A DNA stretch of 64,000 nt, from positions 23,986,111 to 24,050,110 of the forward strand of contig CM119267.1 in the NCBI GenBank assembly GCA_051294375.1, in the 5' to 3' direction. A program made the position numbers and the translations under genes. Shown piece by piece: positions 2 to 9,221 of the stretch (within the stretch, counting starts at the first letter, position 1; each line of letters starts with the position of its first letter). The DNA is from Paraspadella gotoi (taxonomy: Eukaryota; Animalia; Chaetognatha). The notes below the pieces were generated by a model. That model searched no databases. It had not been told where the DNA came from and saw nothing but the letters and a program-made list of their open reading frames with translations.

Positions 2-3000
2 GGTGAAAAGGGAGATCAAGGAGACAAAGGAGACCAAGGAGACAAAGGAGACCAAGGAGACAAAGGTAACCAAGGCGACAAAGGTGAAAAAGGTGATCAG
101 GGAGACAAGGGTGATCAAGGAGACAAAGGAAATCAAGGAGATAAAGGGGATCAGGGAGAAAAAGGTGAAAAGGGGCATCAAGGAGACAAGGGAGATCAGG
201 GTGACAAGGGTGACCAAGGAGACAAAGGTGACCACGGAGACAAAGGCGAAAAAGGAGATCTGGGAGATAAGGGTGACCAGGGTGATAAGGGTGACCAAGG
301 AGACAAAGGAGTCCAGGGAGACAAAGGCGAAAAGGGGCATCAAGGAGACAAGGGCGACCATGGTGATAAAGGTGATCAAGGAGATAAAGGTGAAAAAGGG
401 GATCAGGGAGACAAAGGAGGTCAAGGCGACAAAGGTGACCAGGGAAAAAAAGGTGATTATGGAGACAAGGGGGAAAAGGGTGATCAAGGAGACAAAGGTG
501 ACCAAGGAGACAAGGGCAACCATGGTGTCAAAGGTGACCATGGGGACAAAGGTGAAAAAGGTGAACAAGGAGATAAAGGTGACCAAGGAGACAAGGGCGA
601 TCAAGGAGACAAAGGGGACCAAGGAAATAAAGGTGAAAAGGGTGATCAGGGAAACAAGGGAGATCAAGGAGAAAAAGGCGACCATGGAGACAAAGGTGAA
701 AAGGGGGATCAGGGAGATAAGGGAGACCAGGGAGAAAAAGGAAACCAGGGAGACAAAGGTGACCATGGAGACAAAGGGGAAAAAGGAGATCAGGGAGATA
801 AGGGAGATCAGGGAGACAAAGGGGACCAAGGGGACAAAGGAGACCAGGGAGAGAAAGGAGAAAAGGGGGATCAAGGGGACAAAGGAGATCAAGGAGACAA
901 AGGCAACCAAGGAGACAAAGGAGACCTAGGAAATAAAGGTGAAAAGGGAGATCAAGGAGACAAGGGAGATCAAGGAGATAAAGGAGATCAAGGATACAAA
1001 GGCGATCAAGGAGACAAAGGTGAAAAGGGTGATCAGGGAGACAAGGGTGACCAAGGAGACAAAGGATATCATGGAGATAAAGGGGATCAAGGAGACAAAG
1101 GTGAAAAGGGGGATCAGGGAGACAAGGGAGATCAGGGTGACAAGGGTGACCAAGGAGATAAAGGAGACCAAGGAGACAAAGGCGAAAAAGGAGATCAAGG
1201 AGATAAGGGAGACCAGGGTGATAAGGGTGACCAAGGAGACAAAGGATACCAGGGAGTCAAAGGCAAAAAGGGGGATCAAGGGGACAAGGGAGATCAAGGA
1301 GACAAAGGCAACCAAGGAGACAAAGGTGAAAAGGGATATCCGGGAGACAAGGGAGAAAACGGAGAAAAAGGTGACCTTGGAGACAAGGGAGATCAAGGAG
1401 AGAAAGGGGAAAAAGGAGATCAAGGCGACAAAGGAGATCAGGGAGAGAAAGGTGATCAAGGAGATAAAGGTGCCCATGGAGACAAAGGTGAAAAAGGAGA
1501 TCAGGGAGATAAAGGTGACCAAGGAGACAAGGGTAATCAAGGAGATAAAGGAGAGCAAGGAGACAAAGGTGAAAAAGGGGATCAAGGGGACAAGGGAGAC
1601 CAAGGAGACAAAGGCAACCAAGGAGACAAAGGGGACCAGGGAGACAAAGGTGAAAAGGGAGATCAGGGAGACAAGGGAGATCAGGGAGACAAGGGTAACC
1701 AAGGAGACAAAGGGAACCAAGGAGACAAAGGCGAAAAAGGAGAGCAGGGAGATAAGGGAGATCAAGGAGATAAAGGAATCCAAGGTGATAAAGGGGACCA
1801 AGGAGACAAAGGCGAAAAAGGAGTGCAGGGAGATAAGGGAGTTCAAGGAGATAAAGGAAACCAAGGAGACAAAGGTGACCAAGGAGAAAAAGGTGAAAAA
1901 GGAGATCATGGAGACAAGGGGGACCATGGAGATAAGGGCAATCAAGGAGAAAAAGGAAACTTAGGGGACAAAGGCGAAAAAGGAGACCAAGGAGAAAAGG
2001 GAGACCAAGGAGACAAAGGAATGCAAGGAGAAAAGGGGGATCTTGGTGACAAAGGTGAAAAGGGAGATCAGGGAGACAAGGGAACTCAAGGTACAAAAGG
2101 CAACCAAGGAGAAAAAGGAGACCAAGGAGACAAGGGAGAAAATGGTTTTCAAGGAGACAAAGGAGACCAGGGTGATAAGGGTGATCAAGGTGATAAAGGT
2201 GACCAAGGAGACAAAGGACAAAACGGTGATCAAGGAGACAAGGGTGAACATGGAGAAAAAGGAGATGGAGGAGACAAAGGGAATAAAGGTGACCAAGGAG
2301 ACAAGGGAGACCATGGTGATAAAGGCGCCCAAGGAGATAAAGGCGAAAAAGGAATTCAGGGTGATAAAGGAAACCAGGGTGAGAAGGGTTTCCAAGGAGA
2401 GAAAGGAGAACATGGGGATAAGGGTGAAAAAGGGGATCAGGGTGAAAAAGGAAATCAAGGTGACAAGGGTGATCTAGGAGACAAAGGGGACCAAGGAGAC
2501 AAAGGTGAAAAAGGAGATGAAGGAGATAAGGGAGATCAAGGAGATAAAGGAGGTCAAGGAGAAAAAGGGGAACAAGGAGATAAAGGCGATAAAGGATATC
2601 AGGGAGACAAAGGAGACCAGGGAGACAAAGGTGATCAAGGAGACAAGGGGGAGCAAGGTGACAAAGGTGAAAAAGGGGATCATGGAGACAAGGGAGACCA
2701 AGGAGACAAGGGAGACCAAGGAGAAAAGGGTGATCAAGGAGACAAAGGAGAAAAAGGAGATCAGGGAGACAAGGGGAATCAGGGAGAAAAGGGAGATCAG
2801 GGAGACAAAGGAGTTGAAGGAGACAAAGGTGAAAAGGGAGATCAAGGAGAAAAGGGGGATCAGGGAGAAAAGGGAAACCAAGGAGACAAAGGGAACCAAG
2901 GAGACAAAGGTGAAAAGGGAGATCAGGGAGACAAAGGTGACCAAGGAGACAAAGGTAATCAAGGAGATAAAGGAAACCAAGGAGATAAAGGTGAAAAAGG

Positions 3001-9000: not shown

Positions 9001-9221
9001 AGGAGAGCAAGGAGTCAAAGGCATTCATGGTGACAAAGGATTACAAGGAGATAAGGGCAATCAAGGCATGCAGGGAGAGAAGGGAATACATGGAGAAAAG
9101 GGTGACCAGGGACTTAAGGGTGAGCAGGGAGAAAAAGGTGAACAAGGCTTACGTGGTCTTCAGGGCCAACAAGGCGTCAAGGGCGAAGATGGTCGACGAA
9201 CGCAGTACATTTTTGGAAGTG
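2..9221 (+). CDS. Gene 1 collagen exon: about 1,020 Gly-X-Y triplets, open at the window edge
   Basis: Frame 2 reads [12 protein letters not shown]... throughout (ORFs 1823..3781 and 6071..9229 are parts of it), apart from a compensated +1/-1 indel pair at ~3779 and ~3917. Ends [13 protein letters not shown] then G|GTAAGT donor at 9222. Confidence 0.9.

Follow-up and report, generated by a model that had tools for sequence, protein, structure and literature searches.

What kind of protein carries a collagen helix of more than 1,000 triplets with almost no proline? The question is raised by a 64,000-nucleotide stretch of the chaetognath Paraspadella gotoi (GenBank assembly GCA_051294375.1, contig CM119267.1, positions 23,986,111–24,050,110 of the forward strand), here called the window, which opens inside a giant collagen exon of a gene referred to below as gene A. 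Two related genes, paralogs B and C, lie downstream on the same strand. An earlier note made from the sequence (the preliminary description) had treated the collagen as a free-standing molecule of fibrillar type. The exons that follow it indicate instead that it forms the N-terminal arm of a predicted type I membrane precursor, which also carries a module resembling the zona pellucida (ZP) module of egg coats. Papers are cited here by PMC number.

The giant exon and the one proline codon found by counting codons in its helix are as follows.

1–9221, + strand: giant collagen exon of gene A; Gly-X-Y spans 2–9199 and is followed by a tail of 7 residues and a GT donor in phase 1; the 5′ end lies beyond the window.
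1340–1342, + strand: sole proline codon (CCG) of the in-frame helix.

The collagen run is open at the 5′ edge of the window in + frame 2. It was counted over three clean segments, 2–3772 (419 triplets), 3801–3917 (13) and 3926–9199 (586), which give 1,018 triplets; four more triplet positions in a damaged patch are excluded from the counts. Gly is first in all 1,018. The X position is held by Asp in 612 triplets (60.1%), Glu in 173 (17.0%) and Asn in 88 (8.6%), the Y position by Lys in 557 (54.7%), Gln in 383 (37.6%) and His in 40, and four triplets, GDK (347), GDQ (225), GEK (141) and GNQ (69), make up 782 of the total. The repeat unit is nine triplets (27 residues, 81 nucleotides) in 88 of 109 parsed units, and a spacing of nine is found in 87 of 109 intervals between adjacent Lys-ending triplets. 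The longest in-register run is 586 triplets, compared with 11 or fewer in 200 codon shuffles, and Pfam Collagen matches 8000–9220 at E 9e-66. These counts bear out the preliminary description in its figures of about 1,020 triplets and more than 3,000 residues open at the 5′ edge, its X position of mostly Asp, Glu or Asn and Y position of mostly Lys or Gln, its 27-residue repeat and its single proline codon. Its view of the helix as free of interruptions has to be given up: the frame is broken at 3779–3925, and of the 1,005 triplets that make up the two long segments, 13 have Gly at X or Y. Gly at these positions is an interruption by the counting rule of PMC11923368, which leaves 204 triplets as the longest strict run. 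The repeat was also said to end at 9193; the helix reaches 9199 and the GT donor of the exon comes after 9221.

Variation between the repeat units was used to judge whether the exon is coding. Among units 81 nucleotides apart in 3926–9199, the first two bases of the Gly codons are 100% identical and those of the Y codons 94–95%, while third positions agree at 53–59%. Synonymous and non-synonymous codon differences stand at 420:215 in the first long segment and 508:405 in the second. Variation biased to the wobble position marks a protein repeat and not a satellite, and a non-coding satellite reading was rejected on this ground. The exon is a near-perfect, almost proline-free Gly-X-Y sequence under coding constraint.

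The length could in principle be inflated by mis-assembly or an amplification chimera, the true exon being much shorter. Assembly artefacts do occur in the window, among them an inverted, indel-rich duplicate of 48100–53355 at 55267–60400 and further mirrored blocks. The longest exact repeat inside 1–9220 is 77 nucleotides, however, and the most similar pair of 243-nucleotide windows is 93.4% alike, compared with 97% for the inverted duplicate, so the length does not come from a duplicated block. No direct or inverted match of at least 60 nucleotides was found between 1–9200 and the rest of the window, and helix composition drifts toward the C-terminal end of the gene A collagen. The nearby artefacts thus look unlike the 1–9221 region, and an inflated length is extremely improbable.

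The damaged patch is a single feature.

3779–3925, + strand: frame break; an extra base gives TAA at 3779–3781, Gly becomes Val at 3792–3794, 13 triplets run in the shifted frame and a base is missing near 3918–3925, with a net shift of zero.

As assembled, gene A consists of an open reading frame (ORF) of 1,259 residues and then a separate one of 1,780 residues, and the in-frame stop speaks against a single continuous chain. The three anomalies are confined to 150 of 9,200 nucleotides, and the two single-base indels cancel exactly. The neighbouring collagens contain frame changes as well, four in the paralog B exon (with a net shift) and ten in C, and the 3′ part of B is spliced intact despite the net shift in its assembled collagen exon. 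Because the anomalies cluster and cancel, B and C carry like changes and the inverted copy is rich in indels, the break is probably an assembly or sequencing error, as judged from this indirect evidence. Gene A might otherwise be a recently broken copy with a real premature stop, intact protein being made only from paralogs such as B or C. The stop in the assembly, the long terminal repeat (LTR) retrotransposon in a gene A intron and the tolerance of tandem arrays for loss of copies all accord with that possibility. It is nonetheless very unlikely, as the indels cancel and no further disabling change is present in the 586 downstream triplets and 10 modelled exons; moreover, one-base shifts pepper B, C and the LTR pair, while unique window DNA fits short-read contigs nearly perfectly, with a handful of differing letters in 5,061 nucleotides. 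The retrotransposon itself occupies 12360–18223, with LTRs 97% alike and a minus-strand ORF of 1,240 residues that has reverse transcriptase, RNase H and integrase domains; the element is broken by several 10-N gaps.

Downstream of the helix, the gene A splice product is predicted to continue in the order ZP-like module, basic RRS, sushi, EGF, SEA, EGF, short coiled coil and transmembrane (TM) helix. All 10 internal exons between 9721 and 28454 are flanked by AG and GT, and the joined frame is free of stops. The exon models are the following.

9721–9914, + strand: predicted exon that opens the ZP-N-like part, with 3 Cys; AG/GT borders, open frame, aligns with paralog B exon 45618–45820.
10060–10176, + strand: predicted exon, ZP-N-like part (2 Cys); gene model against paralog B.
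10538–10653, + strand: predicted exon, ZP-N-like part; gene model against paralog B.
11201–11328, + strand: predicted exon in which the ZP-N-like part ends (Cys), followed by a linker and the first strand of the ZP-C-like part; with the preceding exon (116 + 128 nucleotides) it equals the 244-nucleotide exon of paralog B.
11419–11601, + strand: predicted exon, ZP-C-like part; gene model.
20502–20605, + strand: predicted exon, ZP-C-like part with a Cys6-like residue; the FKF motif is split by the junction that follows; 104 nucleotides, the same in paralog B.
23415–23600, + strand: predicted exon in which the ZP-C-like part ends (3 Cys), with a basic KRRS site and a hydrophobic strand like an external hydrophobic patch (EHP); gene model and Atlas leads on the homolog P0065.
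24793–24991, + strand: predicted exon, sushi with a family-specific insert; 47% to B; Sushi E 0.0014 in the B exon (below the cut-off) and E 7.8e-05 in P0065 (above the cut-off).
26966–27195, + strand: predicted exon with a calcium-binding EGF, after which SEA begins; EGF E 1.2e-04 (above the cut-off), EGF_CA E 9.5e-06.
28235–28454, + strand: predicted exon, SEA-like with a G-S-V-I-V motif; the paralog B exon matches SEA at E 0.029, below the cut-off.
28758–29023, + strand: last exon, end of the second EGF, short heptad segment, TM helix, short tail and stop at 29021–29023; the 5′ part is lost in a 10-N gap; 19-residue hydropathy 3.54.

The TM helix is at the C terminus in both gene A and paralog B. 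A bacterial or viral origin of the locus was rejected on the GT-AG introns and a spliced contig, the introns and the set of domains being those of an animal, and a cadherin-like reading of the post-helix exons was set aside because the Cys pattern and the RRS site fit ZP better.

The same architecture recurs in paralog B, which is complete in the window.

38920–49607, + strand: paralog B; signal-peptide exon 38920–38995, collagen exon 39216–45538, then 10 exons with the same domain order as A.

Of 567 aligned residues, 214 are the same in gene A and B; the two agree in the phases of the 10 introns they have in common, and the 10 Cys of the ZP-like part all fall in line. Pfam EGF_CA is matched in B at E 7.4e-09 and 1.4e-06. 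The 6.3-kb B collagen exon contains 666 triplets with 29 in-frame interruptions besides its frame changes. These interruptions are mostly inserts of two or three residues ending in Lys, and A and C have none, so that a jointed and a rigid version of the helix lie adjacent. A signal peptide was recognised by eye in B and C, and the corresponding part of A is outside the window.

Splicing was followed in a 3,118-nucleotide contig (record 25 of X8, a probable RNA run with the same organism code), which contains the end of the B collagen exon and seven later blocks with no differences (45360–45538, 45618–45820, 46107–46350, 47828–48019, 48138–48337, 48421–48650, 48859–49084 and 49209–50308). The intervals of the record that are not in this list correspond to the three remaining predicted B exons. 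Splicing of collagen to the ZP-like, sushi, EGF, SEA and TM exons is documented for paralog B by this one probable-RNA contig, and we infer it for gene A. That run X8 is RNA is a guess, a point that counts against the proposed precursor.

The module that follows the helix is about 310 residues long, with six Cys in its first half and four in its second, the FKF motif, the basic RRS and then the hydrophobic strand. The six Cys of the N-terminal half are conserved in A and B; four have spacings compatible with the ZP-N pattern of Cys1-Cys4 and Cys2-Cys3, and the other two are an extra pair. The Cys numbering used here is our own assignment against the standard ZP connectivity (PMC7456536). The pairs expected in a ZP-C are Cys5-Cys7, Cys6-Cys8 and CysA-CysB. 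By this numbering, the ZP-C-like part has Cys6-, CysA-, CysB- and Cys8-like residues; neither Cys5 nor Cys7 occurs in A or B. Paired loss of Cys5 and Cys7 has been reported for CUTL-28 and NompA, and a basic cleavage site followed by a hydrophobic strand is the arrangement that activates ZP polymerisation (PMC7456536). The homolog P0065, a short ORF from ENA that covers the end of the module, keeps a Cys7-like residue and has a full R-S-R-R site. RRS is invariant in all three family sequences (A, B and P0065), with the hydrophobic strand after it. When residues 1–64 of P0065 were compared with the Atlas, ZP clusters were named in three of four listed feature rows (0.77–0.78), and the top structural row was a ZP protein (TM-score 0.54).

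Several results pull the other way. The full R-X-X-R furin consensus is present in P0065 only, the corresponding residues being SKRR in A and QNRR in B. The Atlas scores of P0065, for clusters and for structure alike, do not reach the bars of the Atlas (0.9 for clusters) and serve as leads only, and a ZP-N-side B exon gave no ZP there; the LCAT clusters that it returned, also below 0.9, were dismissed as noise. No Pfam PF00100 match was obtained with the nine ZP-like exons taken singly (34–81 residues) or with alignment A4, and PDB sequence-profile searches of the ZP-like exons and alignments found no ZP match. These profile searches covered single exons and their alignments, and their sensitivity is low. 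In the PDB search with alignment A6, nothing but SUMO and N-myristoyltransferase came up, with E values of 1.4 or worse. AlphaFold2 models had a mean predicted local distance difference test score of 32.9 for alignment A4 and 44.9 for one B exon, too low for use. Judged from the Cys pattern and the weak Atlas leads, the post-helix module is probably a ZP module; that it polymerises is a weaker proposition by analogy, somewhat better than evenly balanced.

The EGF and SEA matches in the stalk bring membrane mucins to mind, for which a SEA-EGF-TM stalk is typical. Gene A could thus encode a membrane-tethered spacer, a mucin-like coat of rods kept on or shed from the cell surface, in which the ZP-like part, as in endoglin or betaglycan, does not polymerise and serves for trimerisation or as a stalk. 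The incomplete furin consensus in A and B, the loss of Cys5 and Cys7 and the lack of a significant ZP match would all suit such a protein. On the other hand, RRS followed by the hydrophobic strand is found in all three family sequences and is the arrangement for ZP activation (PMC7456536), and both halves of the module are kept in both paralogs. We hold a spacer of this kind to be rather unlikely.

How could a helix with almost no proline be stable? In gene A, 386 of about 1,017 Y-G-X windows (38%) are KGD (271) or KGE (115), and 386 of the 557 Y-position Lys precede Gly-Asp or Gly-Glu. KGD and KGE each account for 3–6% in typical collagens, and KGD for 13% in viral collagens (PMC11923368); their geometry forms interchain bridges that are argued to act as kinetic clamps (PMC11923368). 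By analogy, electrostatic stabilisation of the proline-free helix by KGD and KGE is plausible. The balance of charge is a point against bridges as the whole explanation: the helix has 790 acids and 576 bases, net −214 over 1,018 triplets, so that many carboxylates have no Lys partner, and cations or lysine modification may also matter.

It could be, then, that unmodified salt bridges are insufficient, and that the helix is stable only after hydroxylation and glycosylation of the Y-position Lys or bridging by divalent cations, or that the repeat is largely a disordered acidic polyampholyte gel. The net charge and the Lys at 557 of 1,018 Y positions agree with this. Y-position Lys of the proline-poor mimivirus collagens is a substrate of a lysyl hydroxylase and glycosyltransferase, and these collagens carry hydroxylysine (PMC9614988); Scl2, though it contains proline, melts at 35.6 °C at neutral pH and at 24.2 °C at pH 2.2 (PMC8968730). 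A disordered gel, however, would have no need of a Gly register that is invariant over 1,018 triplets while the wobble positions drift, and most Y-position Lys have the bridge geometry described in PMC11923368. We regard the insufficiency of unmodified bridges as unlikely.

Taken together, the observations are best accounted for by a gene A product that is a type I membrane precursor, likely cleaved, whose likely ZP parts would polymerise into a surface filament bearing collagen rods of about 0.9 micron or longer, probably held by salt bridges, a reading in which our confidence is even. Provided that the frame break is erroneous and that trimers form, a rise of 0.286 nm per residue would give a rod about 0.87 micron long, and at least that, since the exon continues past the 5′ edge. 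In the proposed sequence of events, three chains would gather at the membrane-proximal end, through the TM helix, the heptad segment or the ZP-like module, and the helix would zip from C to N as in general collagen folding. KGD and KGE bridges would slow local unfolding in place of hydroxyproline (PMC11923368), and cations might screen the surplus acid, or modified lysines offset it. A cut at RRS would release the blocking strand, and the module would polymerise as in uromodulin or ZP proteins. The product may be an apical filament, in the form of a bottle-brush or a mesh, with very long collagen arms. In the B juxtamembrane segment (49212–49604), V-I-N-L-N-L-M occupy the heptad a/d positions, and layers with Asn at d recall trimeric coiled coils. 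Two points tell against this scheme: the juxtamembrane heptad segment is short, with little conservation from A to B, and no precedent was found for a trimeric arm fitted into a ZP filament.

The region beyond paralog B begins with a third gene.

50245–53355, + strand: start of paralog C; signal-peptide exon 50245–50308 and A-like collagen exon from 50592; more collagen at 60421–64000.

The X8 contig is unbroken from the last B exon across a 640-nucleotide spacer with four AATAAA to the exact donor of the C signal exon, and continues for 160 letters (49209–50308). It represents a read-through transcript, an operon-like transcript or overlapping untranslated regions merged by assembly. The inverted duplicate that overlaps the C region has 55 gap openings in 2,400 nucleotides, and a second mirrored block pairs 53553–54577 with 60742–61870 (region 53362–61900). 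These mirrored blocks look like a fold-back chimera, for which reason the length of gene C is not trustworthy.

Other repeats are scattered over the window. An inverted pair of about 800 nucleotides between genes A and B (arms 32069–32855 and 34941–35727) may be the termini of a DNA transposon. A B intron contains a very high-copy interspersed repeat at 46830–47471, with contig depths of 10^4 to 10^6, and an element that looks similar by eye is near 21880–22720. Downstream of gene A are a short tandem repeat with a unit of about 60–66 nucleotides (30990–31340) and TATC and GA microsatellites (37049–37385).

Relatives of the family were sought in sequence databases. A HMMER search with the sushi exons gave 377 hits; among the 150 listed, four short ENA ORFs, one of them P0065, match the family-specific sushi domain with its insert from end to end of the domain. 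The top 12 sushi hits, whose ranks are inflated by repeat number, comprised seven ascidian names, one nemertean and four entries without a visible organism, no more than a hint of a tunicate. When longer proteins were compared, none of 55 candidates matched B exon 46107–46349, and alignment A3 matched one of 5,763, a fish protein of generic selectin-like type. Among JGI metagenome contigs, 90 fitted the search pattern and none was confirmed. For the helix, 7,985 candidates of 966–3,077 residues were scored, with 1,070 hits; in the 120 of these that were listed, dominated by collagen VII, the longest unbroken run was 341 triplets and the lowest proline content 10.1%, and proline-free giants may still exist elsewhere. 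A collagen-ZP membrane precursor was not found in the databases or in the literature searched (PMC3390340, PMC9290575, PMC13361971, PMC7456536, PMC8968730, PMC8790370 and PMC10980280 among it), from which most subscription papers were absent.

The closest known systems each share part of this architecture. ZP-module membrane precursors (uromodulin, GP2, ZP1–4, nematode cuticlins, Drosophila NompA and Dumpy, mollusc EGFZP, oikosin 20) have a type I layout, two-part Cys-linked module, basic site, hydrophobic strand and TM helix (PMC7456536, PMC9290575) that resemble those predicted here. What sets the present family apart is an N-terminal arm made of collagen, from 660 triplets to more than 1,000 in length, a sushi-EGF-SEA-EGF series placed between the predicted cleavage site and the TM helix, and a module too divergent for PF00100 exon by exon. 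Fibrillar collagens also have a long helix, of about 338 uninterrupted triplets rich in proline and hydroxyproline, followed by COLFI; gene A has one proline, its C-terminal part is made of ZP-like, sushi, EGF, SEA and TM segments, and neither COLFI nor C4 was found after the helix in the exons scanned. The transmembrane collagens of the MACIT group (XIII, XXIII and XXV) and collagen XVII are type II proteins, in which an N-terminal TM helix precedes the collagen. The TM helix is C-terminal in A and B, and B and C start with a signal-like exon. What the two groups have in common is a membrane-anchored collagen, sheddable at a basic site in the known proteins (PMC10538796).

The giant cuticle-type collagens of annelids (Alvinella, Paralvinella and Eisenia) are likewise several times longer than a fibrillar helix and reach 8,859 residues (PMC12403961). 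The preliminary description had put the gene A helix at about three times the fibrillar length, which is numerically right; it is no record beside these annelid proteins. They differ in proline content, with Pro at X in 33–40% and at Y in 22–33% of triplets (PMC12403961), as against one Pro in 1,018 triplets here, a comparison of the helices. Bacterial and giant-virus collagen-like proteins (Scl2, the mimivirus L71 group and long bacterial domains) resemble the gene A arm in being independent of hydroxyproline and enriched in KGD and KGE. Among the entries listed from the PMC11923368 data set (rows 5310, 7505 and 15789), bacterial proline-free GDK/GDQ stretches are about 30 triplets long and one eukaryotic stretch about 45; one bacterial domain of about 1,700 letters has no Pro in its first 400, and longer proline-free domains are possible beyond these entries. 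The listed long bacterial examples are rich in Thr and Ala, unlike gene A. KGD stands at 13% in the viruses, compared with 38% for KGD and KGE here, and the gene A helix belongs to a spliced animal gene with a ZP/SEA/EGF stalk. Long helices alone (annelids) and proline-poor helices alone (bacteria and viruses) are known, and their combination in a spliced animal gene with a C-terminal anchor was not found in the literature and databases searched.

A bolder possibility, which we hold to be distinctly unlikely, is that gene A is the first of a collagen-ZP hybrid family building a self-measuring mesh. ZP filaments would form the long threads, and hydroxyproline-free collagen rods of about 0.6–1 micron or longer, clamped by salt bridges and differing in length from paralog to paralog, would form the cross threads, so that gene length would set pore size. 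If this were true, the weak tunicate hint and the planktonic-looking short metagenome homologs would point to a candidate structural protein of the tunicate mucus feeding net, the smallest mesh of which measures 0.2 × 0.5 micron (PMC8790370).

The interest of the feature lies in its architecture more than in its length, as two known fibre systems would be joined in it. Animal apical matrices have two main fibre systems, collagen and ZP proteins, and as a rule no single protein belongs to both. The arm offers a natural extreme test of whether KGD and KGE bridges, and not hydroxyproline, can carry the folding of a very long helix (PMC11923368). Bacteria, with no prolyl hydroxylase, can produce its simple 27-residue unit, which makes both the folding question and the idea of a biomaterial directly testable. 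If the predicted precursor is correct, a single chain would couple triple-helix folding to ZP polymerisation.

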